From an uncultured SAR86 cluster bacterium (lineage in GTDB: Bacteria; Pseudomonadota; Gammaproteobacteria; Magnimaribacterales; D2472), in NCBI GenBank assembly GCA_902515455.1, contig CABXUO010000001.1:7297-71296 (forward strand): a stretch of DNA of 64,000 nt. Direction: 5' to 3'. This document shows positions 2,362 to 21,638 of the stretch, in pieces. A program made the translations under genes and the position numbers. Below the pieces are notes generated by a model. The model had not been told where the DNA came from. It saw only the letters and a program-made list of their open reading frames with translations, and did no database searches. Position 1 is the first letter of the stretch; each line of letters starts with the position of its first letter.

Positions 2362-3201
2362 TTATTCTTTGGTTGTTGATTCAATAAGTTCTGTTGAGTA
2401 ACCTGAGTAAACCTCTACGAACTCTGGATGAGTCAATATCCAAAATTCATCATTTTCAATTTTTTTAAAAACAATTATAGCTAAGTCTTCAGGACTCATG
2501 CCTTCTTTAACGCCATCAGCAAGCCATTGAGCATTACTCTTGGCGCTTTCGTGTTGGTCAATTGAGGATTCGTCAAGATCTAATCCAAGGTGATCTCTTT
2601 CAATGATGTTGGTTTGAACTAATCCAGGACAGAGTACGGACACCCCAACCTTATCATTGTCTGCTAGATCCTCATGCAAGGTTCGGGTTAAACCCACAAC
2701 TGCATGCTTGGTCGTTGTATAAGGAGCAAGCGCAGGGCCAACAATGATACCTGCCATAGATGATGTATTAATAATGTGACAGCGTTCTTGGCTAGCAACC
2801 ATCTCATCAACAAACAGATTTAAGCCATAAATTACACTCATTAAATTTACATCAATAATTCGTTGCCAGTTTTTTTGGTCTGCTTTCCATGCTCTACCTT
2901 CTAAAAAGATTCCTGCGTTATTAAATAGGAAATGAACTGTGCCAAACTCACTTTCAATTTGTTCTTTCGCTTTTGCAAAGTCTTCTAAGTTAGATACATC
3001 ACACTGGATGATCATCGATGGACAATCTGCCATAAGGCTATGAGTCTCACTTAAACCATTTTTGTTGAGGTCCATTAAGACTACATTCATTTGAAGTTTT
3101 GCAGCATGCAATGCTAAGCCTCTCCCAATTCCACTGGCAGCACCTGTGATTAAGACAGTTTTATTTGTAAAAATATCAGCTTGCAAGATACCCACCATCA
3201 A
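2362..3201 (-). CDS. short-chain dehydrogenase/reductase (SDR)
   Basis: TGAASGIGRG Rossmann motif, NNAG, and Ser...YTTTK catalytic residues. Confidence 0.85.
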   Translation of the reverse strand: MMVGILQADIFTNKTVLITGAASGIGRGLALHAAKLQMNVVLMDLNKNGLSETHSLMADCPSMIIQCDVSNLEDFAKAKEQIESEFGTVHFLFNNAGIFLEGRAWKADQKNWQRIIDVNLMSVIYGLNLFVDEMVASQERCHIINTSSMAGIIVGPALAPYTTTKHAVVGLTRTLHEDLADNDKVGVSVLCPGLVQTNIIERDHLGLDLDESSIDQHESAKSNAQWLADGVKEGMSPEDLAIIVFKKIENDEFWILTHPEFVEVYSGYSTELIESTTKE

Positions 3202-3940
3202 TGGGGTAATAAGATCCTGTAATATAAGATGCTTCTGATGATGCTAGAAAATATATTAAATTAGCCACTTCATCTGCAGAAGCCACTCTTTTCATAGGAA
3301 CTCTTTGTAAAAGGTACTGCATGACATTTTCATCTTTCATCAATTCTGTATTCATTGGCGTATCTATGACACCTGGACCGATTGCATTAGCCCTTATGTT
3401 TATTGTTGCGTAGTCTTGCGCAATTGATTTGGTGAGACCAACCACGGCATGTTTGGAGGCACCATATGAAGCTTGAGCTGCACTAGCTCTTGTTCCCATA
3501 ATCGATGCCACATTCACAATGGAACCCTCTTCAATGTTCATTGCAGTAGCAAGCTTTAAGAATTCTCTACAGGCATAAAAAGTTCCATGTAAATTTATGT
3601 CTATGGTTCTGAGCCATTCATCTACTGAGTATTCATGCAAGGGATTCAATGCTGGGCTGATGCCTGCACAATTAATTAATACATGAGCAGGACGTTTTTC
3701 CTCTAATAGGGCATTAAAAATAGACTCAATTTGAGAATGATTTGTAATATCGCAATGAATAAAATTTAATTTGTATGTATCTGATTTGAGGTCATTGATT
3801 GAATTATCTCCAGCTTCTTTATTAGCGTCTAAGCTCAATACCTCATATCCTTCTTTTAAAAAACGCTTTACTGCGCCCAGGCCGATTCCAGAGGCTCCGC
3901 CAGTAATCACTGCAAATGGTTGAGATTTATTAGTCGACAT
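3176..3940 (-). CDS. short-chain dehydrogenase/reductase (SDR)
   Basis: TGGASGIGLG, NCAG and YGASK motifs. Overlaps the downstream SDR gene by 26 nt. Confidence 0.85.
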   Translation of the reverse strand: MSTNKSQPFAVITGGASGIGLGAVKRFLKEGYEVLSLDANKEAGDNSINDLKSDTYKLNFIHCDITNHSQIESIFNALLEEKRPAHVLINCAGISPALNPLHEYSVDEWLRTIDINLHGTFYACREFLKLATAMNIEEGSIVNVASIMGTRASAAQASYGASKHAVVGLTKSIAQDYATINIRANAIGPGVIDTPMNTELMKDENVMQYLLQRVPMKRVASADEVANLIYFLASSEASYITGSYYPIDGGYLAS

Positions 3941-4099
3941 ATTTATGTATAAAAATTTATTCTTAAAGTTCTAACTAATCCACTATAACGAATCATGAAT
4001 TTTCTAACAATATAAATTAAATGATTAGATTTCTTGACAAAAAAAATCCTATTGATACTCGTTGATTAATCAATTTATTTATAAGATAGTTAAATCCTA

Positions 4100-5764
4100 A
4101 TGTTGCACTCAGACAAATACATTCAAGCCCTAATTAACGAACAACCTTTTTTTGAAATTCATCAAGAAAATGTTCTTGGAGTACAGATGGATGTCTTTAA
4201 AAATAGGCCTAAGTCATTGGTGGATTTTATTGAATCATCTGCAGCACATGGCGACAAACCTTATTTAATATTTAAAGACCAAGTTATTACCTTCAATCAA
4301 CATTTAACTCTCGTAAAAAAGGCTGCATATATTCTTCAGACTAAATATGAAGTTCAACAAGGTGATAGGGTGGCTATATATGCTGCCAATTCACCTGAGT
4401 GGATAATATTTTTTTGGGCCACAGTCAGTCTTGGCGCAATTGCCTGCGGATTGAATGGTTGGTGGAAAGGTTCTGAGGCAATTAAAGCAATTAATGATGC
4501 AGATCCTAAAGTCGTTGTTGCAGATCAAGCGCGATTTGAAAGAATTGATGAAACACTTGAGCATCCTGTCATGATATTTGAGCAGCACGATCTCTCAGCA
4601 CATGAACAAGGACTTGATTCATTTATTCGAGTGGATGAAGATGAATGCGCATGCCTTTTATATACATCCGGCACCACAGGGACTCCAAAAGGCGTCATGA
4701 CAACTCATAGATCAATGATTGCAAACTCAACGCTCCAAATGCTTCAAGGAGCTGCCGTATCTCAAGATTCCTCCAGCAAAGGCATTGATTGGTCCAAGAA
4801 CACCCCAACAACCCTGCTTACTTCACCCTTATTTCATGTGTCAGGATTATCTGCAGGAGCTGTTACGAGTCTATTTGCAGGTTCTACAACCTTGCTTTAT
4901 GACGGGAGATTTTTGGCAAATAAAGTCATTGAGTTAATCCAAAAATATAATGTGACATCATGGGGAGGAGCAGTTCCAACAGCCCTAAAAAGAGTCTTAG
5001 ATGATGCAGAGGAAAAAGGATTAAAAATGATGAGTGTGCTGGTAGTAGGTGGGGGGGGTGCACCAATGCCCCCAGAATTAATTTCGCGAACAAAAGATGT
5101 CTTTCCAAACTCAAAGTATAGTTTTGGATATGGCTACGGACTTACAGAATCTGGCGCTATTACAATTATTAATTGGGGGGATAATCTTAAAAATGAACCA
5201 GCTTCTCCAGGGCAGCCAATGCCAACAATTCAAGTTCAGCTAAGAGATGAGGATGGGGAAGTGATAGATAAGGACTCAATTGAGGGTGAAATATATGTTA
5301 AAAGCCCCTCAGTAATGCTTGGCTACTATAACAATACGCTTGCCTCTAAAGATTCATTAACTGAGGATAGGTGGCTAAAAACCGGAGATTGGGGATTTAA
5401 GAAAAAATCTCTTTACTATATTTCTTCTAGACGAACTGATCTGATTTTAAGGGGAGCAGAGAATGTTTACCCACAAGAGATAGAATTAGTAATAGATTCT
5501 CATGAAGGAGTAGAGGAGTCAGCTGTTATTGGAATACCTCATGATGATTTGGGTGAAGAAGTAATGGCAATTGTGTATGCAAAGAGATCTAATGTTGACG
5601 ATTTAGAATTAAGTGCATGGGTGGCAAAGGATCTTGCTGACTTTAAGGTGCCCTCTAAGTGGAAATTTGTTAATTCGCCATTGCCAAGAAATGCTTCCGG
5701 TAAATTGATGAAACATGTTTTAATAGACACATCTAAAAATACAATGGTTGAAGAAAATGAGTGA
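4100..5764 (+). CDS. acyl-CoA synthetase / AMP-dependent ligase (class I adenylate-forming enzyme)
   Basis: LYTSGTTGTPKGV AMP-binding motif, GYGLTE, TGDWG, and a C-terminal ..SGKLMK lysine motif. Confidence 0.9.
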   Translation: MLHSDKYIQALINEQPFFEIHQENVLGVQMDVFKNRPKSLVDFIESSAAHGDKPYLIFKDQVITFNQHLTLVKKAAYILQTKYEVQQGDRVAIYAANSPEWIIFFWATVSLGAIACGLNGWWKGSEAIKAINDADPKVVVADQARFERIDETLEHPVMIFEQHDLSAHEQGLDSFIRVDEDECACLLYTSGTTGTPKGVMTTHRSMIANSTLQMLQGAAVSQDSSSKGIDWSKNTPTTLLTSPLFHVSGLSAGAVTSLFAGSTTLLYDGRFLANKVIELIQKYNVTSWGGAVPTALKRVLDDAEEKGLKMMSVLVVGGGGAPMPPELISRTKDVFPNSKYSFGYGYGLTESGAITIINWGDNLKNEPASPGQPMPTIQVQLRDEDGEVIDKDSIEGEIYVKSPSVMLGYYNNTLASKDSLTEDRWLKTGDWGFKKKSLYYISSRRTDLILRGAENVYPQEIELVIDSHEGVEESAVIGIPHDDLGEEVMAIVYAKRSNVDDLELSAWVAKDLADFKVPSKWKFVNSPLPRNASGKLMKHVLIDTSKNTMVEENE

Positions 5765-6203
5765 TCAAAAAGATCTTTTAAGAGCTCCCTTTGAGCTTGC
5801 TTATAATTATAAGCGTTCAAGCGGTCCTCTTATGTCAAAATTTTTTGATGCCTTAGCAGAACAAAAAATCCTAGGCACAAAAAGCAGCACTGGAAAGGTG
5901 TATGCTCCGGCTGCTGAATTTGATCCAGAGACTCATGAATCATTGAGTGACTTAGTAGAGGTTGGACCTGGCGGAGTGATCGAATCATTTAGTTGGATTG
6001 AAGAGCCAAAACATCATCACTTAATTAAAAATCCATTTGCATTTGCTTTAATCAAATTGGATGGAGCTGATACATCTATGCTCCATATGGTTACTGAGTG
6101 TGATGAAGAAGACCTAAAAATTGGATCAAGGGTCACAGCAAATTGGTCTGCAACTATTGAGAATCGCATAACTGATATTAAATTTTTTACCTTAGAAAAA
6201 TGA
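5757..6203 (+). CDS. DUF35-type OB-fold protein with a degenerate (Cys-less) zinc-ribbon region
   Basis: Size and layout of a DUF35/OB-fold acyl-CoA-associated protein (..FALIKLDGADTSMLHMV..IGSRVTANW). No CxxC pairs. ATG at 5757 is preferred over TTG at 5748. Its stop overlaps the next start (ATGA). Confidence 0.65.
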   Translation: MSDQKDLLRAPFELAYNYKRSSGPLMSKFFDALAEQKILGTKSSTGKVYAPAAEFDPETHESLSDLVEVGPGGVIESFSWIEEPKHHHLIKNPFAFALIKLDGADTSMLHMVTECDEEDLKIGSRVTANWSATIENRITDIKFFTLEK

Positions 6204-6697
6204 GCGAAGAAGAAAAAAAAGATTACGCTGAGTCTCCAATAAATTTGGAATATCATTATACAGCTGGATCAGCTACCACCCGATTTCTTAACCAAGTTAA
6301 AGAAGGCAAAATTGTAGGTCAGTCATGCCCAAAATGCAGCGCTGTATATGTACCTCCAAGAGGCAGCTGTCCAAGATGTGGAGTAGCAACAAATATCGAG
6401 GTTCCATTGACTGATAAAGGCTGCATTGAATCATTTACTATTGTGCATATTCCTATTCCGGGTAATCCCATCGTGCCGCCATATGTTTGTGCAATGATCA
6501 GGCTCGATGGAGCTAACATTTCTTTTTTGCATCTCATTCAAGGAATTGATGTTGAAGAAATAAGAATTGGGATGCGTATACAAGCAGTTTGGAAGCCTAA
6601 AGATGAATGGACTCATTCATTAGAGAACATCAAATGGTTTACTCCTATAGATGAACCAGATGTTGATGTTGCAACATTGAGGTTTCAAGAATCATGA
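6200..6697 (+). CDS. DUF35-type OB-fold protein with an intact 4-Cys zinc ribbon
   Basis: CPKCSAVYVPPRGSCPRCG rubredoxin-like ribbon followed by an OB-fold (CAMIRLDGANISFLHLIQG..IGMRIQAVW). ATGA overlaps on both sides. Confidence 0.75.
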   Translation: MSEEEKKDYAESPINLEYHYTAGSATTRFLNQVKEGKIVGQSCPKCSAVYVPPRGSCPRCGVATNIEVPLTDKGCIESFTIVHIPIPGNPIVPPYVCAMIRLDGANISFLHLIQGIDVEEIRIGMRIQAVWKPKDEWTHSLENIKWFTPIDEPDVDVATLRFQES

Positions 6698-7749
6698 GAA
6701 AAGTAGCAATCGTAGGATATGCTCAACATCCTATTTTAGAGAATGCGGGAGCTTTAAACGAAGTTGAACTCATCATGCCAGTTGTTCATCAGCTGTTTGA
6801 TGAATTAGGTATAAGTCAAAATAACATAGATTTTACCTGCTCAGGTAGTTGTGATTATTTGCAAGGAGCTGCTTTTGCATTTGTTGAAGGTTTATCTGCC
6901 ATTCAAACCAATCCTCCCATTAAAGAGTCGCATGTAGAAATGGATGCAGCTTGGGCGATGTATGAATCAATGCTAAAAATTCAAATGGGAGATGCAGATA
7001 CTGCATTGATTTATGGATTTGGTAAATCTTCTCCCGGTAGACTCGATTCAATAATTTCATTACAAATGGATCCTTATTACATTTCACCTCTTTGGCCAGA
7101 TCGAGTAAGTTTGGCTGCAATACAGGCAAGGGTGCTGCTTGAAAAAAATATCATAACTCCTGAACAAATGATTACAGCTGTTATTGAGGCAAGAACTAAT
7201 TCTAAGAATAATAAAAATGCACTTGTTACTGAATTGGTTGATAAAGAAGCATATCTAGCAAGTGAGAACATTTCTTCTCCACTCAATGAATTTGATTGTC
7301 CTCCAATATCTGACGGATCTTCTGCCATGATCATTGCCTCAGAAGAAAAAGCATATGAATTCACTGATCATCCTATTTTTATTGAAGGCATCGATCATAG
7401 AATTGAATCATCAAATATAGGCTCACGGGATCTTTCAAAACCTTCTGGAATACTGGCTTCAATTGAGCAGTTAAAACTTGAAAAAATAAAATTTGATGTT
7501 GCTGAGTTACATACTCAATTTAGTCATGAGGTGCCTTACTTACAATCCGTTTTAAACCTTAGTGATGTTCCAACAAATTTATCAGGTGGACCATTGGTTG
7601 GTAATGTCATGATGTGTGCAGGTTTGGATGCAATTGGCAAAACTTACGAGTCATTAAAATCCCATGATTTTACAAATGGCCTGGCGCATGCATCCTCTGG
7701 CCCATGTTTACAACATAACATGCTTGTTCATTTGGAGAAAAAATCATGA
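6694..7749 (+). CDS. thiolase-like (SCP-x/Ltp-type) protein lacking the nucleophilic Cys
   Basis: Thiolase-fold layout (VAIVGYAQ.., ..GFGKSS, NLSGGPL). The position aligned to the Cys of the N-x-C-A-S/T-G motif reads VEMDAAWA. Confidence 0.7.
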   Translation: MRKVAIVGYAQHPILENAGALNEVELIMPVVHQLFDELGISQNNIDFTCSGSCDYLQGAAFAFVEGLSAIQTNPPIKESHVEMDAAWAMYESMLKIQMGDADTALIYGFGKSSPGRLDSIISLQMDPYYISPLWPDRVSLAAIQARVLLEKNIITPEQMITAVIEARTNSKNNKNALVTELVDKEAYLASENISSPLNEFDCPPISDGSSAMIIASEEKAYEFTDHPIFIEGIDHRIESSNIGSRDLSKPSGILASIEQLKLEKIKFDVAELHTQFSHEVPYLQSVLNLSDVPTNLSGGPLVGNVMMCAGLDAIGKTYESLKSHDFTNGLAHASSGPCLQHNMLVHLEKKS

Positions 7750-8894
7750 TTCAGGCTGGTGTAATTGGAGTTGGACAAACTAAATATGATGCCAAAAGAA
7801 GGGATGTATCCATGGGTGGATTAGTCCGAGAGGCAATAGATAATGCCATGTTAGCTGCTAATGTTGAATGGGACGCTATAGACGCTGTTATATTAGGCAA
7901 AGCACCAGACATGTTTGAGGGTGTGGTTATGCCTGAGTTATATTTAGCCGATGCTATTGGAGCTGTTGGTAAGCCGGTCCTCCGAGTCCATACTGCTGGT
8001 AGTGTTGGAGGGAGCACAGGTGTTATTGCCGCAACCCATGTTTGTTCAGGGCAATTTAAAACAGTTTTAACTGTAACATTTGAAAAACAATCTGAATCAA
8101 ATGCAACGTGGGCATTATCCCCACGTTACCCATATTCTCCTCATATCAATGCAGGTGCTGGAGGATACTTTGCTCCATTTATCAGAGAGTACATTCGCAG
8201 ATACGATGCTCCAGAACATATTGGTTGGAAAGTTGCAGTTAAAGATCGTTTGAATGCACTCAAGAATCCACTAGCCCATCTTCATATTCCAGGGATAGAT
8301 GAAAAAATGGTAAGTGACACTCCTATGCTTTGGGAGCCATTAAGATATCTTGAGAGTTGCCCATCGTCCGATGGAGCCTGTGCCATGGTAATTACATCCA
8401 AAGATCTTGTGGGCTCAAGAGATGTTGCATGGATAAAAGGAATGGCTGTTAGATCTGAGGGCACTTTGTCCGCAGGCAGAGATGAGGTCAATCCTCAGGC
8501 AGGAATTGATTGCGCAAAAGATATCTATGATCAGGCAGGCATAACCAATCCATACAAGGAAATTGATTGTGCAGAAATTTATGTTCCATTTTCTTGGTAT
8601 GAGCCAATGTGGTTGGAAAATTTAGGATTTTGTGATCTGGGAGAAGGATGGAAACTGACCGACAAAGATGCAACAGCTATAGATGGAGAAATACCTTTTA
8701 ATATGTCTGGTGGAGTTATGTCGTCCAATCCGATTGGAGCATCGGGAATGATTCGTTTTGGTGAAGCAGCCTTACAAGTTATGGGTAAGGCAAATGATCA
8801 TCAAGTTGAGGATGCGAAAGTTGCAATGGGACATGCTTATGGTGGAGCAGCACAATTTTTTGCAATGTGGATAGTCTCATCATCACTAGATTAG
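7746..8894 (+). CDS. thiolase-like (SCP-x/Ltp-type) protein lacking the nucleophilic Cys and the GHP histidine
   Basis: VHTAGSVGGSTG...TFEKQSE aligns to VNNxCATGSTA...GFEKMS with Gly at the Cys position. NMSGGVMSSNPIGASG occupies the place of NPSGG..GHPxGATG. Confidence 0.75.
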   Translation: MIQAGVIGVGQTKYDAKRRDVSMGGLVREAIDNAMLAANVEWDAIDAVILGKAPDMFEGVVMPELYLADAIGAVGKPVLRVHTAGSVGGSTGVIAATHVCSGQFKTVLTVTFEKQSESNATWALSPRYPYSPHINAGAGGYFAPFIREYIRRYDAPEHIGWKVAVKDRLNALKNPLAHLHIPGIDEKMVSDTPMLWEPLRYLESCPSSDGACAMVITSKDLVGSRDVAWIKGMAVRSEGTLSAGRDEVNPQAGIDCAKDIYDQAGITNPYKEIDCAEIYVPFSWYEPMWLENLGFCDLGEGWKLTDKDATAIDGEIPFNMSGGVMSSNPIGASGMIRFGEAALQVMGKANDHQVEDAKVAMGHAYGGAAQFFAMWIVSSSLD

Positions 8895-8907
8895 TTAGGA
8901 GTTATTT

Positions 8908-9705
8908 ATGAATACAGAGCATGCGATTGTAGAAGAAAAAGGCCACATAATGGTCATTACACTTAATCGTCCTGAAAAAAGAAATGCGTTAAGTCCAGGC
9001 ATGTTATTAACTGTATATGAAGCTTGGAGAAAACTCGACGAAGATTCTAATCTAAGATGCGCTGTCTTGACTGGTGCAGGCGGTACTTTTTGTTCTGGGG
9101 CTGACCTAAGTGCTATGAAGGATGGAAATGAAGATTCTGAGATGATGGAAAAATTAAAAGAAATTCCTGATTTACATTGGCAATCTCTGTTAAGGCACAA
9201 CAGGCCTAATAAACCAATTATTGCAGCAGTCGAGGGGTTTGCACTTGCTGGAGGTACAGAGATTTTACAGGGTACAGATATTAGAGTTGCAGGAAAAAGT
9301 GCCGTATTTGGTCTAACAGAACCGTTAAGGGGCTTATTTCCATTAGGTGGCTCGACTGTTCGACTTAGAAGGCAAATTCCTTATACTCTGGCAGCAGAAG
9401 CATTGTTAACTGGGAGGAGAATTTCCTCTGAAGAAGCATTAAGATTTGGGCTTATTGGTCATATCGTAGATGATGGAACTGCTCTAGATAAAGCTATGGA
9501 AATTGCAGAAACCGTCAGTGCAAATGCACCATTATCTATTCAGGCAATTGTTAAATCTTTAAGAGAAATTGATGAGAGCTATCTAGAATCAGAAGCATTG
9601 GAAAAAGAGTTAGAAATAGGGCAGCCCGTTTTTTCGACAGAAGATATGATGGAAGGGCTGACTGCTTTTGCAGAAAAAAGAAAACCAAATTTCAAAGGTA
9701 AGTGA
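8908..9705 (+). CDS. enoyl-CoA hydratase/isomerase (crotonase family)
   Basis: ITLNRPEKRNAL, GAGGTFCSGADL, AAVEGFALAGGTE and a C-terminal FAEKRKPNFKG. AGGAG-like RBS upstream. Confidence 0.85.
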   Translation: MNTEHAIVEEKGHIMVITLNRPEKRNALSPGMLLTVYEAWRKLDEDSNLRCAVLTGAGGTFCSGADLSAMKDGNEDSEMMEKLKEIPDLHWQSLLRHNRPNKPIIAAVEGFALAGGTEILQGTDIRVAGKSAVFGLTEPLRGLFPLGGSTVRLRRQIPYTLAAEALLTGRRISSEEALRFGLIGHIVDDGTALDKAMEIAETVSANAPLSIQAIVKSLREIDESYLESEALEKELEIGQPVFSTEDMMEGLTAFAEKRKPNFKGK

Positions 9706-10436
9706 GTAAACTTTTAATTGAGACCGAAAAAGGTATTCGTACCTTAATCTTTAACCGCCCAGAAAAAAAGAATGCATTTGACGCCGAATTGTGGGCTATG
9801 TTTAGAGACGAGCTAAATTTAGCAAGCGACGATCCTGACATCTATTCTGTGATTGTAACTGGTTCGTCCAATACTTTTTCTTCGGGTGTTGATCTAAGCA
9901 GCATGATGGGAGATGGGGGTGCAGAATATGAAGAGCCATTTGAAACTTGTATCGATGCATTAATAAATTTTAAAAAACCATTAATAGGAGCTGTTGAGGG
10001 AGCTGCTGTAGGTGGAGGTGCAACCATTTTATTGCATTTTGATGCTGTTTTTATTTCTCCAAATACAAAAATAAAATATCCATTTTCTGAATTAGGCTTA
10101 GCTCCTGAGGTTGGCAGTTCTTATTTATTATTTCAGGCACTAGGATATCAACAAGCGGCTCAACTTTTATTTCAATCTAAAATCATTGATGGAACTAAAT
10201 ATTATGAATTAGGTCTAGCCAAATATGTTGGTGATGATTTTCTAGATCAAGCTTATAGTTATGCACAAGATTTAAAAGAACAATCACTCAGCTCAATTAT
10301 TGAAACTAAAGCAATTTTAAAATCATTTATGTTGGAAGATCTTGCTGAAGCTCGTTCGATAGAAAATAAAGCAATGAAAAAATTATTTGGTTCTGAAGAT
10401 AACTTAAAAGCTGTAGAGAAGTTTTTTAATAAATAA
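9702..10436 (+). CDS. enoyl-CoA hydratase/isomerase family protein
   Basis: LIFNRPEKKNAF, GSSNTFSSGVDL and GAVEGAAVGGGAT. GTG start overlaps the upstream stop (GTGA). Confidence 0.8.
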   Translation: MSKLLIETEKGIRTLIFNRPEKKNAFDAELWAMFRDELNLASDDPDIYSVIVTGSSNTFSSGVDLSSMMGDGGAEYEEPFETCIDALINFKKPLIGAVEGAAVGGGATILLHFDAVFISPNTKIKYPFSELGLAPEVGSSYLLFQALGYQQAAQLLFQSKIIDGTKYYELGLAKYVGDDFLDQAYSYAQDLKEQSLSSIIETKAILKSFMLEDLAEARSIENKAMKKLFGSEDNLKAVEKFFNK

Positions 10437-11492: not shown

Positions 11493-12107
11493 ATGTCGAT
11501 TGAAGAAAGAATAGATCGACTTGAATCGCTTGATGAAATTAGGCAATTAGCAGCCAAGTATTCTGTAACTTTAGACATGCGAGATATTGATATGCATGTA
11601 AATCTTTTTGTTCCAGATGTTCGAGTGGGCAAAGAGAAGAGTGGTCGTCAAGCTCTAAAAAAATGGGCTGATGCAACTTTTAGAGATAAATTTACAGGAA
11701 CTTCTCATCATATAGGGAATCACATCATTGATTTTGAGACACCTGATTCAGCAATTGGTTTGGTCTATTCAAAAAATGAACATGAAACTGAAAATGAGTG
11801 GATTATTATGCAAATGCTTTATTGGGATTCATATCAAAGAGTTAATGGAACATGGCTTTTTAAAAAAAGACTTCCGATGTACTGGTATGCAACTGATTTA
11901 AACAAACCACCTCTGGGTGATAAAAAAATGCGCTGGCCAGATGAAGAAAGCTATGAGGGATTTTTCCATGACTTATTTCCTTCTTGGAAAGAGTTTTGGA
12001 GTAGTGATTATATTCGAGACAATGACGTCTCAGCACCGGTTGAAGCAAATCAGTTTCTAAAAGCTATAAGGCGCGGCTCAGAACCTGGAAAATTAAAAAT
12101 TAAATAA
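11493..12107 (+). CDS. SnoaL-like / NTF2-fold protein
   Basis: The N-terminal IDRLESLDEIRQLAAKYSVTLD pattern is typical of SnoaL_4 proteins. Size about 200 aa. Confidence 0.5.
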   Translation: MSIEERIDRLESLDEIRQLAAKYSVTLDMRDIDMHVNLFVPDVRVGKEKSGRQALKKWADATFRDKFTGTSHHIGNHIIDFETPDSAIGLVYSKNEHETENEWIIMQMLYWDSYQRVNGTWLFKKRLPMYWYATDLNKPPLGDKKMRWPDEESYEGFFHDLFPSWKEFWSSDYIRDNDVSAPVEANQFLKAIRRGSEPGKLKIK

Positions 12108-12236
12108 ATAGGCTACAATACCTAACATAAATACGAACCCACCTATGCCGATAACAAATAGTCCTAAACTTTTCATTGTTTGTGTATCTTCATCCATACA
12201 GTAAGTATAACCACCTAATAATTCTTTAATCAAATT

Positions 12237-13265
12237 ATGAATATAGAAAAAAGATTAGAATTTCCCATTGATGACGTACCGAAATATGGAGTTTTGCACC
12301 AAATAAATGACCAAATTCATTGGGTAAGAATGCCATTACCAATGTCTTTGAATCATGTAAATTTATGGACTGTTGGTGATAAAGACAGCTTAACTCTGAT
12401 TGATACAGGTATGCAGCTAGAAGATACCAAAAACCTTTGGAAAAATTTAATTAAAAAAGAAAATCTGTTTTTTAAACACATCATTGCAACCCATATGCAT
12501 CCAGATCATGTTGGTTTAGCTGGCTGGTTTGTAAAAAAATATGAATCAAATTTTAGTATGAGTAGAACTGATTACTTGCAGTGCAGAATGTTATCTGCGG
12601 ATACTGGAAATGATGTTCCGAATGATGCAATAAAATTTTATACTCAGGCAGGCATGACAAAGGATCAGATTCATTCTTTTACTGAAAGATTTGGTTTTTT
12701 TGGCTCTATTGTTCATCCATTGCCGCGATCCTATAACCGATTAAAAGATGGCGATAGTATTGAAATCAACGGTACAAATTGGTTAGTTATTGATGGACAG
12801 GGCCATACAATGGAGCATTTAGCCTTCTATTCTGAGGAATTAAATGTATTTATAAGTGGTGATCAGCTTCTCCCAACTATTAGCTCCCACGTTGGTACTT
12901 TTCCAACAGAGCCAGAGGCTAATCCAGTAGAGGATTGGATTGCATCCTGTCACAAACTATTAAAAATATTACCTGAGACAGTGTTAGTTTTGCCTGGTCA
13001 TGGAAGGCCATTTGTCGGCGCTCACAAGAGATTAATGGCTCTGATAGAGCATCATGAAACTTCTTTAGATAAACTCCATGATATTTTAAAAACACCTAAA
13101 AGAGCAGTCGATGTTTTTGATATTTTATTTAAAAGGGAAATTGATGATAGCAATCTAATCATGGCAACTGGTGAATCATTAGCTCACTTGAATTGTTTAC
13201 ATTATCGTGGGCTGATAAAAAAATCACTAGATCAAAACAATCAGTGTTGGTATGAGCAAAACTAA
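12237..13265 (+). CDS. MBL-fold metallo-hydrolase
   Basis: THMHPDHVG metal-binding motif, with downstream His (GQGHTMEH) and GD residues. Confidence 0.8.
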   Translation: MNIEKRLEFPIDDVPKYGVLHQINDQIHWVRMPLPMSLNHVNLWTVGDKDSLTLIDTGMQLEDTKNLWKNLIKKENLFFKHIIATHMHPDHVGLAGWFVKKYESNFSMSRTDYLQCRMLSADTGNDVPNDAIKFYTQAGMTKDQIHSFTERFGFFGSIVHPLPRSYNRLKDGDSIEINGTNWLVIDGQGHTMEHLAFYSEELNVFISGDQLLPTISSHVGTFPTEPEANPVEDWIASCHKLLKILPETVLVLPGHGRPFVGAHKRLMALIEHHETSLDKLHDILKTPKRAVDVFDILFKREIDDSNLIMATGESLAHLNCLHYRGLIKKSLDQNNQCWYEQN

Positions 13266-14502
13266 GCTCTCAACAGAAGCGAAGGCATGGATCCTTTACG
13301 ATGGCGGTAATTCTGCGTTTGCTACAACTGTAATAGCGGCTTTTTTCCCAATATTTTTTAATGATTTTTGGGCAACCGGTCTTGAGGCTGAAGTAAAGAC
13401 TGCTTATCTTGGTTGGGGCTTAACAATTTCAAACTTGGTTCTTTTATTTACCTCTCCATTTATTGGCGCCATAACTGATGTTTCAAGAACAACGAAATTT
13501 TTATTTTCCGGATTTGGTGCGATATCAATAATTTCAGTTGCGATTTTATTTTTTGTTCCCGCAGGCTCATGGCTTCAGGCTTTAATATTTTTTGGTATAG
13601 CGAATTATTGTTTTGCAGCTGGCAATACTCTATATGACAAGATGTTAGTTCAAGTTTCTAATCAGGATAATATTGCTAAAATATCTAGTTATGGATTTGC
13701 ATTCGGATATTTAGGGGGAGGTTTTTTATTTCTTATTAATGCAGCTATGACCATTAAACCAGAGTTTTTTGGACTATCCAGTGTTGCAGATGCGGTAAGA
13801 TGGTCTTTCCTCAGCGTATCTGTTTGGTGGACCTTATTTTTAATACCAATCTTGTTAAAAATTCAAGATAAAGGAGTAAGTTTACCTGGATCCCACTTCA
13901 AAATGGCTTACTTGAGGGTGATAAATACATTGCGAACTGTATCCTCAAAAAAAAATGTTTTTATTTTTTTATTAGCTTTCTTTTTGTACATTGATGGTGT
14001 TCATACCATTATGGCAATGGCAGCTGATTTTGCTCTCAATTTAGGATTACCTAGCAGTGATATAATTGTTGCTCTCATACTTGTTCAATTTGTAGCTTTT
14101 CCAACGACTCTACTTTGGTCGAAATTCGCATACAAATTTGGCGAGAAAAATACTTTATTATTTACGATTTCTCTTTATCTTCTTGTGATCGCATATTCTG
14201 CTTTCTTATCTAATGCAATTGAGTTTTATGTTCTAGCTTCTATGGTAGGAGCTATTCAGGGAGGTATTCAATCCATTTCTAGGAGCTATTATGCGACCCT
14301 TATTCCGCATGATGAATCTGGAGAGTACTTTGGTTTTTATAATATGTTTGGCCGAGCAGGCGCATTTATGGGCCCAGCATTAGTAGCAATTTTTGTGACC
14401 TTTTTTCAAGATACAAGATTTGGCTTGATACCAATAGCAGCACTCTTTATTATGGGTGCAATTATTCTTTTAAAAGTTCAAAGCAACAATGAATCTCTTT
14501 AG
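13252..14502 (+). CDS. MFS transporter (UMF1/Atg22-like)
   Basis: About 12 TM segments. N-terminal AWILYDGGNSAFATTV is typical of the UMF1 family. Confidence 0.7.
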   Translation: MSKTKLSTEAKAWILYDGGNSAFATTVIAAFFPIFFNDFWATGLEAEVKTAYLGWGLTISNLVLLFTSPFIGAITDVSRTTKFLFSGFGAISIISVAILFFVPAGSWLQALIFFGIANYCFAAGNTLYDKMLVQVSNQDNIAKISSYGFAFGYLGGGFLFLINAAMTIKPEFFGLSSVADAVRWSFLSVSVWWTLFLIPILLKIQDKGVSLPGSHFKMAYLRVINTLRTVSSKKNVFIFLLAFFLYIDGVHTIMAMAADFALNLGLPSSDIIVALILVQFVAFPTTLLWSKFAYKFGEKNTLLFTISLYLLVIAYSAFLSNAIEFYVLASMVGAIQGGIQSISRSYYATLIPHDESGEYFGFYNMFGRAGAFMGPALVAIFVTFFQDTRFGLIPIAALFIMGAIILLKVQSNNESL

Positions 14503-15478: not shown

Positions 15479-15712
15479 ATGAATGACCAGGATATCTTAA
15501 TGCAGGAAGGAATGAATCTGCTATACAGCGGAATGATCGTGGTATTCAGTTTTTTGATTTTACTGATAATTTCAGTCAATTTACTAAGAATTTTCTTTGC
15601 TTTATTAATTCAGAGTAATCCAGCTGAAGAGGGCTTTGATCCATTGCTTGAGGAGCAAAACAATATCCATCATAAAATTATAAAAGAAGTGTTAGGAGGT
15701 ATTAGGTCGTGA
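15479..15712 (+). CDS. oadG: oxaloacetate decarboxylase gamma subunit
   Basis: 77-aa single-TM protein (LLYSGMIVVFSFLILLII) directly upstream of, and overlapping (GTGA), oadA. Confidence 0.7.
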   Translation: MNDQDILMQEGMNLLYSGMIVVFSFLILLIISVNLLRIFFALLIQSNPAEEGFDPLLEEQNNIHHKIIKEVLGGIRS

Positions 15713-17463
15713 CAGATTCTAAAAAAATTGGTGTTACCGAATTAGTTTTAAGAGACGCACATCAATCATTACTTGCAACTAGATTTAGATATTCTGATAT
15801 GGAATCTGCATTAAAAGATCTTGATAGCGTTGGTTTTTGGTCAGTTGAATCTTGGGGCGGAGCTATTTTTGATTCTTGCATAAGATATTTAGGCGAGGAC
15901 CCTTGGGAAAGAATTAGAAAGATAAAATCGATGATGCCTAACACGCCTCAACAAATGCTTTTAAGGGGACAAAATTTACTTGGTTATAAACATTATTCAG
16001 ATGATGTTGTTAATAAGTTTGTTGAGTGCTCAAAAAAGAATGGAGTTGATGTTTTTAGAGTTTTTGATGCACTCAATGATACAAGAAATATGCATCAAGC
16101 ATTACAAGCAGTTATTGGTGTAGAAGGCCATGCTCAAGGAACAATTTCCTATACAACAAGTCCTGTTCATACTATTGATTTATGGGTAGATCTTGCAAAA
16201 AGAATTCAAGATATGGGTGCTCAATCATTAGCAATTAAGGATATGGCAGGATTATTGAAGCCTTATGTAGCTTTTGAGCTTGTTTCAAAACTGAAGGACG
16301 AGCTTGAAATCCCTGTTCATTTGCATTGTCATGCCACCACAGGTTTTTCAGTCGCTACTGGTGTAAAAGCAATTGAAGCTGGTTTAGATGTTATTGACAC
16401 ATCGATTTCTTCAATGAGCATGACATATGGACATACTCCAACTGAAACAATGATAAGTATTCTAGATGGAACAAATCGGGAGACGGATTTAAATCTTGAA
16501 AACCTCAAACCTATTGCTGAGCATTTTCAGTCAGTAAGAAAAAAGTACAAGAAATTTGAAGGATCTTTGAGGGGAGTAGATGCCAGAATTATTGCTTCTC
16601 AAGTTCCAGGAGGCATGCTTACTAACCTTGAGAATCAGCTAAAAGCTCAAGATTCAATAGATAAATTTGATGATGTTATAAAGGAAATCCCAAAAGTTAG
16701 AAAAGAACTAGGTTACATTCCATTAGTTACTCCTACCTCTCAGATTGTTGGAACTCAATCTGTGATAAATATTTTATCTAGTTCTAGATATTCAACCATC
16801 ACCAATGAAGTGAAGTCTTTATTGAAAGGTGAATACGGAGAAACTCCTGCACCAGTGGATAAAGATCTGCAGCAACAGGCTATTGGTGATAGTGCTGTTA
16901 TTACATGCAGACCTGCAGATTTACTCAATGATGATTATCAATCAGCAAAAGAAGATTTTGAAAAAGCCATGACTGAAAACAATCTCATGTCTGAATCATC
17001 TGATGAGAATGTACTAATCTATACAATGTTTCCAGAAATTGGAGTAAATTTTTTAGCAAATATTGATAATCCAGACTATTTCGAAGCTGAGCCTCTTGAA
17101 ATTCATGAGTTAACTGATTCTGCATATTTGGTGAGCGTGGACGATAAGGAATATTCGGTTACATTGAAAGCTGATAATTCAGTGATAATCAATGATGGAT
17201 CACGAGTAAATGAAATTAAGAATGAGACTAAAGTTGAAGCTGGACCTGGAACAATTATAGAGGCTCCTCTTGGTGGAAACATTTTTAGAACAATTGCCTC
17301 CGAAGGGGATTCTGTTGAAGCCGATGCAACCGTTCTTATCTTAGAAGCTATGAAAATGGAAACAGAAATTAAGGCACCTTCAGCTGGTATCATTGCAAAA
17401 ATTTTTGTTAAACCGGGAGATACTGTAAAACCTGGCAATCCCTTGTTCGAAATTCAAAGCTAA
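15709..17463 (+). CDS. oadA: oxaloacetate decarboxylase alpha subunit (carboxyltransferase plus biotinyl domain)
   Basis: The N-terminal [16 protein letters not shown]-barrel carboxyltransferase signature, HCHATTG, and a C-terminal biotin attachment site EAMKMETEI. Confidence 0.9.
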
Positions 17464-18752
17464 TGAATCTAGAAGCAATTTTTTCTAATTTAGGAATTTT
17501 TAGTTTGTCCTCTGGACAATCAATCATGCTATTGGTTGGACTGTTAATTTTGTATTTAGCTATAAGTAAGAAATTTGAACCTCTCTTATTGTTACCTATT
17601 GGTTTTGGTGCAATTCTTACAAATATTCCTGAAATTGGATTAGCTCTTAGTCCAATTGAAAAGCTGATTTATTACTCTGATGGAAATGAGTTAGCTGGAG
17701 CATTATCTTTGGTCTCGGCTGTTGACGGAGAATCTTTAACATCATTTCTTAAAACAGCATCGCATTCTCAGTTATGGCTATTAAACGAATATGCTGCAGA
17801 ATTAGGCTATAAGGCTGGAATTTTAAATACTTTTTATAATGTAGCAATTGGCTCAGGAGTTGCTCCTTTAGTAATTTTTATGGGTGTCGGTGCCATGACT
17901 GATTTTGGTCCAATGTTAGCCAATCCAAAAACATTAATATTAGGTGCTGCGGCACAATTTGGTATTTTTGCAACTGTAATTGGTGCTTTATTACTAAATA
18001 AATTAGGTTTAGTAACTTTCACCCTTAAGCAAGCTGCTGCAACAGGAATTATCGGTGGTGCAGATGGACCAACAGCAATTTATGTTTCTTCAATATTAGC
18101 TCCAGAACTTTTGGGTGCAATTGCTGTAGCTGCATATTCCTATATGGCATTAGTTCCATTAATACAGCCTCCAATTATGAGGCTTTTAACAACAAATTCT
18201 GAAAGAACAATAAGAATGGTTCAATTAAGAGAGGTTTCTCAGAAAGAAAAAATTATATTTCCAATTATATTAGTGTTTCTTGTTGGCATGATGCTTCCAA
18301 GTGCTGCTCCATTAATCGGTATGTTCTGTTTTGGAAATTTAATGAGAGAATCTTTGGTTGTTGAAAGATTGAGTGAAGTAGTTCAAAACTCACTCATCAA
18401 CATAGTTACAATTTTTTTAGGATTGGCGGTTGGATCTAAACTTGCAGCGGATCAGTTTCTCACTCCTGAAACGCTTGGAATTCTATCTTTAGGAATAATT
18501 GCTTTTTCAATAGGCACAGCTTCCGGTATTTTGATGGCTAAATTAATGAATGCCCTTAGTAAAAACAAAATAAATCCTTTGATTGGAGCTGCTGGAGTTT
18601 CTGCTGTTCCAATGGCTGCGAGAGTTGTAAATAAAGTTGGATTAGAGAACGATTCCCAAAACTTTTTATTAATGCATGCCATGGGCCCAAATGTAGCTGG
18701 AGTAATTGGATCTGCAGTTGCCGCGGGAGTCATGATTCAACTTCTAGCCTGA
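17463..18752 (+). CDS. oadB: oxaloacetate decarboxylase beta subunit (Na+ pump)
   Basis: Polytopic membrane protein with the FGPMLANPK and GGADGPTAI motifs of the OadB/GcdB family. TAATG overlap with oadA. Confidence 0.9.
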
Positions 18753-18756: not shown

Positions 18757-19890
18757 ATGGATCCATTTAAAAATATTAGACCATATACTGATTCTGAAGT
18801 TGCAGAAGTTCTATCATCACTTACATCTAATCATTCAGTTTTAAATGCTTTAATAGGACTTCAATTTCCAGGCATTCTTTCAAAAATTCCTTTATTAAAA
18901 TACTTTATAAAGCAAAGACTTATTTCTCGAGCAAAAAAAATTCACACAATAGATGATTATCAAAAAGTATTTAAAACATTAATGGAAAAAGTTGTAAGAG
19001 AATCCATTACAGACTTTTCTGTAAATGGACTTGAAAAGTTAAACCAAAATCATAGCTATTTATTTATCTCCAATCACCGAGATATTACATTAGACGCAGC
19101 ACTTCTTGCTCTAAATCTTTATCAATCTGGCTTTAAAACATTCAATATTGCTGTGGGAAATAATTTAATGGAAGAAAGCTGGGCCTCTGATTTATTTAGA
19201 TTAAACAAAAGCTTTATTATTCAAAGATCTGGAGCAACTAAGAAAGAAATTTATTCTGGTTTGTCCCTCGCTTCAAAATTTATCAATAAAAGTATATTTC
19301 AAGATAATGACTCAGTTTGGATTGCCCAAAAACAAGGAAGGGCTAAAGATGGAATTGATGAAACTGATCCTGCATTGTTAAAAATGATTCATTTAAGTGA
19401 GAGAAAATCAAAATCTATTGCTGATTATTTTAATTCTTTAAGTGTTGTTCCCGTATCTATCTCATATGAATTTGATCCAAATGATCAATTAAAAGCGATG
19501 GAGCTTGATGCATCTGAATTTAATAACAAATATGTCAAAGAAAAAGATGAAGATCTAAAAAGCATTGCTAATGGTATAACTGGATTTAAAGGACATGTCA
19601 CATTAAATATATCTGAGCCAATGGAATTTAAGCCTAATGATGATTATCAAGCAATCTCAAGCAAAATAACTAATTCAATATTAAAAATGTATGAACTCCA
19701 TCCAACAAATTTTGCTGCATGCAATTTACTTGGTTGGGATTGGCAAGGCCAAACAAATTTTTCAAGCAAGGAAATTAATCTAGCACAGAAAGAATTAGAT
19801 AAAAGAACTAAGCCCCTTGGAATTAGCGCACGTTCAAAGTTATTAGAGCAATACGCTAATCCAGTTATTAGAAAGCTGCAATCGCACTAG
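18757..19890 (+). CDS. PlsC-like glycerolipid acyltransferase family protein
   Basis: HX4D motif NHRDITLD and a downstream ..AQKQGRAKDG block typical of lysophospholipid acyltransferases. Confidence 0.65.
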   Translation: MDPFKNIRPYTDSEVAEVLSSLTSNHSVLNALIGLQFPGILSKIPLLKYFIKQRLISRAKKIHTIDDYQKVFKTLMEKVVRESITDFSVNGLEKLNQNHSYLFISNHRDITLDAALLALNLYQSGFKTFNIAVGNNLMEESWASDLFRLNKSFIIQRSGATKKEIYSGLSLASKFINKSIFQDNDSVWIAQKQGRAKDGIDETDPALLKMIHLSERKSKSIADYFNSLSVVPVSISYEFDPNDQLKAMELDASEFNNKYVKEKDEDLKSIANGITGFKGHVTLNISEPMEFKPNDDYQAISSKITNSILKMYELHPTNFAACNLLGWDWQGQTNFSSKEINLAQKELDKRTKPLGISARSKLLEQYANPVIRKLQSH

Positions 19891-21176
19891 CTACCGGTTA
19901 TGTAACCACTCTCATTATGTTCTGTTAAATCCAGGCCTTCATGCTCACTTTCATCACTTACTCTTAAATCTGAAACGTATGAGGTAATTTTCAAGGCAAC
20001 CCAAGAAAATATTAAAGTCCATGTACAGATGACTAAAACTCCCTGAAGCTGGATCATTAATTGTTCAAATACAGATGGATCAAATCCAGCGGCACCAGCT
20101 CCTAGAAATCCATCTGGTTTGCCTACAAAGGCAAGCATTAAAATTCCTAAAATACCTCCAACTCCATGAACAGGAAAAACATCCAATGAATCATCAATTT
20201 TAAAATAAACCTTAATCATTTGAGTCGCATAAAAACATACAAAGCCTGCTAAAAGACCTATCAGTAATGCTCCTTGAGGACCCACAGTACCAGAGGCAGG
20301 TGTAATAGTGGCTAGTCCAGCAACCATTCCAGTAGCTATGCCGACTACTGTAGGCTTACCGGTTTTGAGCCACTCAACTAACATCCAAGTTAACGCGCCA
20401 ACTGCTGCACTTATATGAGTGACTAAAATAGCCATGGCAGCATTTGAATCTGCTGCTACTGCGCTACCACCATTAAATCCAAACCACCCAACCCACAGCA
20501 TAGCAGCTCCCATAACAACCATAGGTCTATTATGAGGAATTAATGAGCCTCCCGGAAAGCCTTTCCTTGGTCCAAGCATTATTGCAGCTACAAGAGCTCC
20601 AACTCCACAAGTTGCATGAACTACTAATCCTCCTGCAAAATCTATGACACCAATGCTTCCAAGGTAACCTCCGCCCCATACCATGTGGCATGCTGGCAAA
20701 TAAACTAAAGTTACCCAAAGGATAGTAAAAATACACATAGCGCTGAACTTCATTCGTTCAGCAAAGGCACCAACAACTAAAGCTGGTGTGATAATTGCAA
20801 ATGTCATTTGGAAAACAACAAATAGGCTTTCAGGAAGAGACCCTGAAGCAGAATCTCTCATCAAATTAGCCAAGAAAAAAGCTTCAGTTCCACCAATAAT
20901 GGATCCATTACCAGTGAATGCTAGGCTGTAACCATAAACAACCCACACAACAGAAACAATGCAACAAATTGCAAAACATTGCATTAGCACTGACAAAACA
21001 TTCTGTGATCTAACAAGCCCTCCATAAAATAGTGCTAGTCCAGGAAGAGTCATAAATAAGACCAATGCAGTAGCAGTTAAAATCCAGGCAGTATCTCCAG
21101 CATTTATTTCAGCAGAAAGCACTGATGGTGAAAGAAGGGCAGTTAAGCCCATTAAACAGTAATTTAATAATTTCAT
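19887..21176 (-). CDS. amtB: ammonium transporter (AmtB type with signal peptide)
   Basis: MKLLNYCLMGLTALLSPSVLSA signal peptide, DTAWIL, and FAGGLVVH / VHGVGG conserved His motifs. ATG at 21176 is preferred over the track start at 21215 because AGGAGA lies 7 nt upstream of it and it avoids overlap with glnK. Confidence 0.9.
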   Translation of the reverse strand: MKLLNYCLMGLTALLSPSVLSAEINAGDTAWILTATALVLFMTLPGLALFYGGLVRSQNVLSVLMQCFAICCIVSVVWVVYGYSLAFTGNGSIIGGTEAFFLANLMRDSASGSLPESLFVVFQMTFAIITPALVVGAFAERMKFSAMCIFTILWVTLVYLPACHMVWGGGYLGSIGVIDFAGGLVVHATCGVGALVAAIMLGPRKGFPGGSLIPHNRPMVVMGAAMLWVGWFGFNGGSAVAADSNAAMAILVTHISAAVGALTWMLVEWLKTGKPTVVGIATGMVAGLATITPASGTVGPQGALLIGLLAGFVCFYATQMIKVYFKIDDSLDVFPVHGVGGILGILMLAFVGKPDGFLGAGAAGFDPSVFEQLMIQLQGVLVICTWTLIFSWVALKITSYVSDLRVSDESEHEGLDLTEHNESGYITGS

Positions 21177-21189
21177 TTTTTTCTCCTGA

Positions 21190-21531
<342 letters not shown>

Positions 21532-21564
21532 TTACCCCAAATAAAAATAATTCACATAACTACA

Positions 21565-21580: not shown

Positions 21581-21638
21581 ATATATATAGAGGTTTTTGC
21601 TTAATTTTGATTAAACCTAGGTAGGATTAATCATTTAT

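Follow-up and report, generated by a model that had tools for sequence, protein, structure and literature searches.

Cys-less thiolase-fold proteins partnered with DUF35 domains are known from steroid side-chain aldolases. Ltp2-ChsH2(DUF35) and Sal-Shy(DUF35) are alpha-beta-beta-alpha assemblies, in which a thiolase-fold dimer lies between two DUF35 domains and a Tyr in the motif equivalent to HDCF of thiolases acts as the base. In Sal from Comamonas testosteroni (CtSal), the nucleophilic Cys is replaced by a Gly that binds the beta-hydroxyl through its backbone NH, and in TcLtp2 an equivalent Gly contacts this hydroxyl (Sal paper). A further system, Ltp3-Ltp4, comes from actinobacterial sterol degraders. 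Reviews and primary papers that cite Wilbrink et al. 2012 give ltp3 and ltp4 of Rhodococcus rhodochrous as essential for C24-branched side chains (sitosterol, campesterol) and not for cholesterol. In this citing literature, Ltp3-Ltp4 is described as a heteromeric aldol-lyase that frees propionyl- or acetyl-CoA after C28 carboxylation and hydration, fadD19 knockout has a phenotype like that of ltp3/ltp4, and sitosterol use is delayed without echA19; the aldol-lyase role is, in that literature, based on genetics only. On the Mycobacterium tuberculosis map these genes are fadD19 (Rv3515c), echA19 (Rv3516), Rv3521—annotated as a conserved hypothetical protein—ltp4 (Rv3522) and ltp3 (Rv3523). M. 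tuberculosis EchA19 prefers a C5-side-chain enoyl-CoA, which it converts to a 22R alcohol unusable by the dehydrogenase ChsB1; its authors call its role unresolved and name Ltp3/Ltp4 as possible downstream cleavage enzymes (PMC8204306). In this report, we focused on a stretch of 64,000 nucleotides (hereafter the window) from an uncultured SAR86 cluster bacterium (Magnimaribacterales; assembly GCA_902515455.1, contig CABXUO010000001.1) and performed a comparative analysis of an operon that encodes two DUF35 proteins (DUF35a and DUF35b) and two thiolase-like proteins (A and B), together with an acyl-CoA synthetase (ACS) and two crotonase-fold proteins (ECH1 and ECH2).

The main finding of this study is that, judged by family models and gene order, the DUF35a-DUF35b-A-B quartet is a SAR86 copy of the Rv3521-ltp4-ltp3 module, accompanied by an EchA19-type crotonase. 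Protein B scores 636.4 bits against NCBIfam PRK08313, above the cutoff of 514, and protein A scores 399.1 bits against PRK07937, below the cutoff of 419 and with the next-best model at 94. The corresponding Rhodococcus locus comprises a PRK07798 ligase (779 bits) on the minus strand, an EchA19 equivalog on the plus strand (428 bits, above its cutoff of 400) and, further on, a fused DUF35 gene followed by an A-type gene, whose product is 47% identical to A and scores 641 bits on PRK07937, and a B-type gene (725 bits on PRK08313). Its order agrees with the M. tuberculosis map. Taken together, scores and order make A the ortholog of Ltp4, B the ortholog of Ltp3, and DUF35a and DUF35b the counterparts of the two halves of an Rv3521-type protein; for A, the case from synteny is convincing although the curated cutoff is narrowly missed. 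An earlier note on this DNA, made from the letters alone, had found the arrangement impossible to assign to a known pathway, but it is the Rv3521-ltp4-ltp3 module of the actinobacterial cholesterol/sterol cluster. That note had also been correct that the genes next door are of crotonase and not MaoC type, both downstream products being ECH_1 proteins by Pfam. The anomaly it saw there disappears, because EchA19, itself a crotonase, is a characterised steroid enoyl-CoA hydratase and a crotonase neighbour is thus the expected partner.

The module is widespread. Scanning with a profile of A, one genome per species, yielded 595 confirmed loci, of which the best 80 were kept; all locus counts given here come from these 80, and their gene order was read by tblastn with the window proteins. 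DUF35a, DUF35b, A and B occur in the same order and on the same strand in 80/80 kept loci, wherever the contig extends far enough, and A, which is full-length in the window, has the syntenic position upstream of an ltp3-type gene in all of them. The kept loci include SAR86, Halieaceae, Spongiibacteraceae, Zhongshania, Endozoicomonas, Sterolibacterium, Rhodococcus, Prescottella, Saccharopolyspora, Amycolatopsis and Mycobacteriaceae. Identity of B is 86-95% among other SAR86 loci and 60-70% to Actinobacteria (60-66% to the product of the gene at the ltp3 position there); outside SAR86, identity is 41-53% for A (41-47% to the actinobacterial orthologs), 40-64% for DUF35b and 30-47% for DUF35a. 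Protein A is 99% identical to a protein of a SAR86 single-cell genome. An identical B is present in 101 indexed blocks of the assembly collection; the 23 carrying contigs that were read include Tara Oceans assemblies, and on many marine contigs, from Tara Oceans and elsewhere, B has the same neighbours. The Zhongshania module is self-contained, with a TonB receptor and a TetR gene upstream of the quartet and a FadD19-type ligase, an EchA19-type hydratase, ECH2 and a thioesterase, while in Sterolibacterium the ligase alone follows the quartet. The gathering of a ligase, an EchA19-type hydratase, tandem DUF35 genes and Ltp4/Ltp3 in one transcription unit of SAR86 and Cellvibrionales argues that EchA19 and Rv3521 work with Ltp3-Ltp4.

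Protein B is likely to be a catalytic retro-aldolase subunit, to go by its aligned active-site residues. The earlier note, working with a manual register, had placed Gly at the nucleophile position of B and found the GHP His missing. Both assignments stand in HMMER alignments to solved thiolases, in which Gly85 (HTAG85SVGG) is opposite the Cys and Asn328 (SSN328PIGASG) is opposite the His. Its likening of these Cys-less, DUF35-partnered proteins to steroid side-chain aldolases is also borne out, since B has, besides the CtSal-like Gly, a Tyr at the HDCF position. The segment EIY279VPFS aligns with ELHDCFS of the SCP2 thiolase 6hsj, which puts Tyr279 at the first HDCF position, the catalytic-base position in Ltp2 and Sal. 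This placement is a two-step one, combining the alignment of B to the SCP2-thiolase HDCF with the published equivalence of the motifs YDHF (Ltp2), YDCY (Sal) and HDCF (thiolase) (PMC12329534). Across 71 sequences, RVHTAG85SVGGS, AE[IV]Y279VPFSW, N328 and C205PSSDGA are invariant, and the pocket residues of B have a mean column identity of 80%. The invariant H82, C205, H363 and Y365 are candidates for the proton donor. The fold of B is that of a thiolase, with template modeling (TM) scores of 0.77-0.85 to structures that include Ltp2 (6ok1) and Sal (9myr).

Protein A has no match in Pfam, and on the strength of its sequence and predicted structure it is clearly a thiolase-fold protein: its AlphaFold2 (AF2) model, with a predicted local distance difference test (pLDDT) score of 82.7, has a TM score of 0.77-0.84 to solved thiolases. 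A and B are distant paralogs (hhalign 99.4%, 21% identity). Alignment to solved thiolases, a check of the kind that the earlier note had proposed, reveals no conserved nucleophilic Cys or GHP His in either protein, and the thiolase residues—Cys nucleophile, His and second Cys—are all absent in both. For A, the earlier note was right that the nucleophilic Cys is missing and wrong in reading Glu, Asp or Ala at its column, which falls in a gap (ESHV--------EMDAAW), the nucleophile loop being shorter by about 8 residues than in thiolases. The GHP His is absent as well, as that note had it, with Asn304 aligned at its position. In A the HDCF motif has become HTQF, and the residue at its first position varies by lineage: SAR86, Actinobacteria and Sterolibacterium have His, Halieaceae and Zhongshania have Tyr. 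The only two stretches of low confidence in the AF2 model of A (54-76 and 112-135) overlap the invariant motifs DYLQG..F.FVEG, PPI, SSPG and DPYY, and may become ordered only within a complex. A is probably a non-catalytic or structural partner subunit.

The two DUF35 proteins, which are 32% identical, differ in the way that the earlier note described, one having a 4-Cys ribbon and the other lacking it: the Pfam zf-ChsH2 ribbon is found in DUF35b only, and OB_ChsH2_C in both. The four Cys of the solved DUF35 protein 3irb align with S/T/D/T in DUF35a, and no ribbon Cys occurs in DUF35a in any of the 22 taxa inspected. DUF35b, which matches ChsH2(DUF35) 6ok1_B at 1.7e-8 as well as the Shy DUF35 9myr_B and the archaeal DUF35 6esq_E, has all four Cys of its CxxC...CxxC ribbon in SAR86, Halieaceae and Zhongshania, three in Saccharopolyspora and Amycolatopsis, and none in Rhodococcus and Sterolibacterium. 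DUF35a is equivalent to the N-terminal half and DUF35b to the C-terminal half of a fused Rv3521-type protein. They form a single open reading frame (ORF) in Actinobacteria, Zhongshania, Endozoicomonas and some Spongiibacteraceae, and separate genes in SAR86, Halieaceae and Sterolibacterium. Their fusion in many lineages implies joint action at 1:1.

Of the two crotonase-fold proteins, ECH1 fits the hydratase role. It scores 367 bits on PRK07799, above the cutoff of 316, and 343.6 bits on the EchA19 equivalog model, below the cutoff of 400; it is 52-57% identical to the products of EchA19 genes next to fadD19 in actinobacterial loci and has both crotonase catalytic Glu, in the motifs GGTE and TEP. 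PRK07799 is the family to which M. tuberculosis EchA19 belongs (PMC8204306). For ECH2, no NCBIfam model reached its cutoff. It has GGGAT instead of GGxE and keeps SELG, so that a single catalytic Glu remains of the usual two; this suggests that it acts like an isomerase or like some other crotonase that is not a hydratase. In Cellvibrionales, ECH2 orthologs (35-40% identity) follow the quartet after a few genes; they were not seen in the actinobacterial loci among those kept. In Zhongshania aliphaticivorans (locus L039, 12983-14813), a family III CoA-transferase (racemase-like) gene and a nitroreductase gene lie between the EchA19-type and ECH2 genes.

From orthology, synteny, active-site substitutions and fold we infer a complex, a chemistry and a substrate. 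Most likely, the quartet forms an asymmetric Ltp3/Ltp4/DUF35 complex that breaks branched side chains of sterols in a retro-aldol reaction, a reading to which we give a probability of about 0.62. That A and B form a hetero-oligomer is very likely, given their adjacency in 80/80 kept loci and the fusion of the DUF35 genes in many lineages. By analogy with the alpha-beta-beta-alpha assemblies of Ltp2 and Sal, the four proteins would form one complex in which an A-B thiolase-fold heterodimer is the core and DUF35a and DUF35b are the flanks, B and the zinc-ribbon DUF35b making up a conserved catalytic half, and A and the ribbon-less DUF35a a faster-evolving structural half. Which DUF35 pairs with which thiolase-like subunit we infer rather than observe. 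We propose an asymmetric complex because Gly85 and Tyr279 of B are invariant, because the corresponding position of A toggles between His and Tyr, and because nonsynonymous divergence (dN) ranks the genes in this way. Measured against another SAR86 lineage, dN rises from B (0.034) through ECH1, DUF35b (0.070) and ECH2 to A (0.120, or 3.5x that of B), with DUF35a (0.128) and ACS near A. All operon genes are under strong purifying selection; synonymous divergence is saturated (> 1.2, some values undefined), and only the dN ranking was used.

Such a complex would perform no thiolysis and would instead cleave a beta-hydroxyacyl-CoA by retro-aldol reaction, with Tyr279 of B acting as the base on the beta-hydroxyl and the backbone NH of Gly85 holding that hydroxyl. 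The ligase would make the CoA thioester, a dehydrogenase encoded elsewhere would introduce the 2-enoyl double bond, and the EchA19-type crotonase would hydrate the 2-enoyl-CoA. The A-B-DUF35 lyase would then free propionyl- or acetyl-CoA where the alcohol is tertiary or otherwise not oxidisable. By established chemistry, oxidation of a tertiary beta-alcohol cannot yield the 3-oxoacyl-CoA on which thiolases act, so that a retro-aldol lyase is required. The favoured substrate, by orthology with Rhodococcus ltp3/ltp4, would be a C24-alkylated sterol side chain. C24-alkylated sterols are typical of marine algae. That B is so highly conserved speaks for a substrate class that has not changed, while the split DUF35 genes, the CasG-like ligase and the isolated position of the operon leave room for a C5 side-chain or non-steroid role in SAR86.

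Several points weigh against a sterol-branch lyase. The ligase next to the quartet in SAR86 is CasG-like (C24-acid type) and not FadD19-type: its best NCBIfam model is Str24CoAsynCasG (steroid-24-oyl-CoA synthetase), at 543 bits and below the cutoff of 750, it shares no more than 22-26% identity with the ligases that accompany the quartet in Cellvibrionales and Actinobacteria, which in Zhongshania and Rhodococcus are of FadD19 type (PRK07798), and the 25 best models listed for it do not include PRK07798. From these comparisons, this looks like a non-orthologous ligase replacement in SAR86. The active site of B has no evident general acid of either known kind. Its YVPF motif has Pro instead of the Cys of Sal and so offers no general acid there, and there is no evident counterpart in B of Tyr344 of Ltp2, Asn328 being in the region in an estimated register. 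No carboxylase, acyl-CoA dehydrogenase, ChsE, cyp125 or ring-degradation gene was found by Pfam and NCBIfam in the 64-kb window, in which nothing else is steroid-specific. In M. neoaurum, deletion of ltp3 or ltp4 still leaves phytosterols converted to 4-HBC, which means that the C24-branch role is not universal or that it is redundant. The searchable literature, subscription papers excluded, yielded neither a structure nor an in vitro assay of an Ltp3-Ltp4 complex; within it a single paper names Ltp3, Ltp4 and DUF35 together, and DUF35 is absent from those of its Ltp3/Ltp4 passages that were consulted. Finally, the invariance of ESHVEMDAAW in A is not counted as evidence, since ESHVEMDA was one of the patterns of the locus scan.

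The same complex and chemistry could serve a C5 steroid side chain, in the manner of Sal. The CasG-like ligase would activate the C24 acid, the EchA19-type crotonase would give (22R)-hydroxy-24-oyl-CoA, and the lyase would yield acetyl-CoA and a C22 aldehyde. The identity of the best ligase model, that of a steroid-24-oyl-CoA synthetase, agrees with this route, although the score of 543 bits is well under the CasG cutoff of 750. It would suit the C5 preference and 22R product of M. tuberculosis EchA19, whose authors point to Ltp3/Ltp4 (PMC8204306), and SAR86 genomes are reported with bile-acid-CoA-ligase-like genes (2024 SAR86 study). However, Atf1 is the C22-C23 aldolase of M. neoaurum, in a route not blocked by ltp3 or ltp4 deletion, the same reaction in M. 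smegmatis is assigned to MSMEG_6561, and Rhodococcus ltp3/ltp4 are linked genetically to C24-branched sterols and not to cholesterol. We hold a C5 substrate to be possible but unlikely. It is doubtful that the module was recruited in SAR86 to beta-branched lipids other than steroids, for example acyl-CoAs derived from phytol or from other isoprenoids, where a 3-methyl-2-enoyl-CoA would be hydrated and the tertiary 3-hydroxy-3-methylacyl-CoA split into a methyl ketone and acetyl-CoA. Tertiary beta-alcohols of any kind demand a retro-aldol step on chemical grounds, and surface seawater is rich in phytol from chlorophyll. The operon stands isolated, the 64 kb holding neither cyp125 nor sterol ring genes, its ligase is not of FadD19 type, and ring degradation is absent from most SAR86 lineages (2024 SAR86 study); yet B, whose pocket is invariant, shares 60-70% identity with the Ltp3 of organisms that degrade sterols, the closest non-SAR86 relatives (Cellvibrionales, Sterolibacterium, Actinobacteria) carry the FadD19/EchA19 sterol set, and SAR86 is predicted to process phytol by alpha-oxidation via phyH (2024 SAR86 study). 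A more general form, in which the SAR86 operon would encode a lyase for tertiary beta-hydroxyacyl-CoAs at large and the Ltp3-Ltp4 family would be "branch-removing" rather than steroid-specific, strikes us as a rather long shot. In a milder version, SAR86 may strip only the C24-alkylated side chains of algal sterols, leaving the rings.

Two readings that dispense with retro-aldol chemistry were rejected, each being highly improbable. A and B could be a true thiolase or acyltransferase, like the benzoylsuccinyl-CoA thiolase BbsAB or the Friedel-Crafts acylase PhlABC, which also combine a thiolase fold with DUF35, and BbsB, BbsA, PhlC and PhlB are matched in fold and, weakly, in sequence. However, A and B are without the nucleophilic Cys, the HDCF Cys and the GHP His, the replacements in B are invariant in 71 sequences, and CtSal, in which Gly likewise replaces the Cys, is said not to be capable of thiolysis. 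Non-enzymatic lipid-transfer or scaffold proteins would be in keeping with the loss of all canonical thiolase catalytic residues and with the database names "lipid-transfer protein" and "lipid carrier protein", although the name presumably derives from likeness to the thiolase part of SCP-x and not from a transfer assay. The pocket of B is conserved far above what is expected of a carrier (80% mean column identity, invariant motifs), and a CoA ligase and a hydratase always accompany the genes.

A sterol-branch lyase in SAR86 would matter because of the host. SAR86 is reported to make up to 6% of the surface-ocean microbial community (2024 SAR86 study), and if the operon removes C24-alkyl sterol branches, it marks a route by which streamlined plankton could gain carbon from membrane sterols. 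The same comparative study finds steroid side-chain beta-oxidation genes to be widespread in SAR86 and ring degradation to be confined to few genera; the word "thiolase" does not occur in it. What was known already is a widespread Ltp3-Ltp4 module, defined by genetics; what is new is an ecologically prominent marine SAR86 member.

The features of the operon are collected in the table below. Seven tightly packed plus-strand genes span 4100-10436 on the ORF list, and the ATGA junctions at 6200, 6694 and 7746, which the earlier note had seen linking the four genes of the quartet, are there in the sequence. Coupling extends beyond the quartet: the ATG at 5757 overlaps the ACS stop by 8 nt (ATGAGTGA), and the ECH1/ECH2 junction at 9702 is a GTGA overlap. 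The ORF list shows about a dozen same-strand short overlaps; such overlaps being common in this compact genome, coupling alone is not unusual and speaks for an operon, not for an oddity. In the 159-bp gap upstream of the operon, the blocks TTGACA..., TGATACTCGTTGATT and TTTATAAGATAG are conserved among six aligned SAR86 loci that are only 72-79% identical in the synthetase coding region. A perfect 12-bp palindrome, TTGATTAATCAA (4062-4073), was dropped as an operator candidate because it is not conserved in other SAR86 loci. A scan for consensus promoters and terminators returned fewer such sites than shuffled controls and was uninformative. In the SAR86 loci long enough to include it (L001-L009, L011-L015; 48-99% identity), the divergent SDR pair keeps its place, and among the kept loci it was not found beside the quartet outside SAR86 and its closest relatives; it may belong to the same pathway as the operon.

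Table. Operon genes and adjoining features of the SAR86 window (window coordinates).
Feature	Position	Strand	Description
Two SDR genes	2362..3940	-	Overlap of 26 nt; divergent from operon; Pfam and NCBIfam SDR matches
Conserved upstream blocks	4034..4089	+	Probable promoter/operator region; from intergenic alignments of SAR86 loci
Acyl-CoA synthetase (ACS)	4100..5764	+	First operon gene; Pfam AMP-binding and AMP-binding_C
DUF35a	5757..6203	+	Pfam OB_ChsH2_C only
DUF35b	6200..6697	+	Pfam zf-ChsH2 and OB_ChsH2_C
Thiolase-like A (Ltp4 ortholog)	6694..7749	+	Best model NCBIfam PRK07937
Thiolase-like B (Ltp3 ortholog)	7746..8894	+	NCBIfam PRK08313
ECH1 (EchA19-type crotonase)	8908..9705	+	Pfam ECH_1; NCBIfam PRK07799
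ECH2 (second crotonase-fold protein)	9702..10436	+	Pfam ECH_1

Elsewhere in the window, where G+C is 30-40% in each 2-kb bin, a SnoaL_4 (NTF2-like) gene is followed by a metallo-beta-lactamase-fold gene that overlaps an MFS transporter gene by 14 nt (11493-14502), and this set is conserved behind the operon in the SAR86 loci long enough to include it (L001-L009, L011-L015). Further along are genes for the alpha and beta subunits of a Na+-translocating oxaloacetate decarboxylase (15709-18752), with a small gamma-subunit gene just upstream in related contigs, and two close same-strand ammonium-transporter genes (19887-22975, minus strand). A cluster of lipid/xenobiotic type (37329-44867) holds genes for a FabH-like KAS III, an alpha/beta hydrolase, two SDRs, an unassigned 229-amino-acid ORF and an amidohydrolase, along with a convergent GMC oxidoreductase gene. 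A Rieske ring-hydroxylating oxygenase alpha gene adjoins genes for an amidinotransferase/arginine-deiminase-fold protein and an amino-acid permease (48522-51829, minus strand), a unit that may serve the catabolism of N-methylated or guanidino compounds and for which no link to steroids was found. An exact-protein look-up of two other window proteins returned no record. Among the kept loci, split tblastn matches in the ligase of the SAR86 single-cell genome (L007, 5406-7068) and in the EchA19-type and Ltp3-type genes of Prescottella defluvii (L064, 5016-5754 and 9080-10221) are frameshifts or assembly errors.

Comparison with the known systems highlights similarities and differences. With Ltp3-Ltp4/Rv3521 of R. 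rhodochrous and M. tuberculosis (Rv3521-Rv3522-Rv3523, part of the KstR regulon), the SAR86 operon shares the order DUF35-DUF35-ltp4-ltp3, the same best NCBIfam models (PRK07937 and PRK08313), the same loss of thiolase catalytic residues and the linkage to an EchA19-type crotonase. It differs in that its DUF35 genes are split and translationally coupled instead of fused, DUF35b keeps the 4-Cys ribbon lost in Rhodococcus and Mycobacteriaceae, the ligase is CasG-like and not FadD19-type, all seven genes form one tight operon, and this operon belongs to a streamlined gammaproteobacterium of the marine plankton and has no ring-degradation genes next to it. Ltp2-ChsH2(DUF35) from Thermomonospora curvata (6OK1), a C3 side-chain aldolase, has in common with it the thiolase fold with DUF35, the Gly and the position of the Tyr base. 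However, Ltp2 is a homodimer served by two identical DUF35 domains of a MaoC hydratase, whereas SAR86 has two thiolase-like proteins, two free-standing DUF35 proteins and a crotonase hydratase; the motif is YDHF in Ltp2 and YVPF in B, and sequence similarity between the two is low (E 1.8e-13 over half of the protein). Sal-Shy(DUF35) from C. testosteroni (9MYR), a bile-acid C5 side-chain aldolase, is likewise proteobacterial, with Gly for Cys and its Tyr base in YDCY, and the zinc ribbon of its DUF35 shapes the substrate cleft. It differs in being a homodimer whose DUF35 is a domain of a MaoC hydratase with a Cys3His ribbon, in keeping the motif Cys (Cys304) as acid where B has Pro, and in being only about 21% identical to B in structural alignment. 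The best fold and sequence matches of A and B otherwise fall in DUF35-partnered assemblies that are, except for ST0096, Cys-dependent thiolases or acyltransferases, and in which DUF35 is a partner or scaffold. None of these best-matching assemblies combines a heterodimeric thiolase-like core with tandem DUF35, so that the SAR86 complex, if it forms as its sequences suggest, would be the first heteromeric DUF35-aldolase, apparently with one catalytic and one degenerate half.

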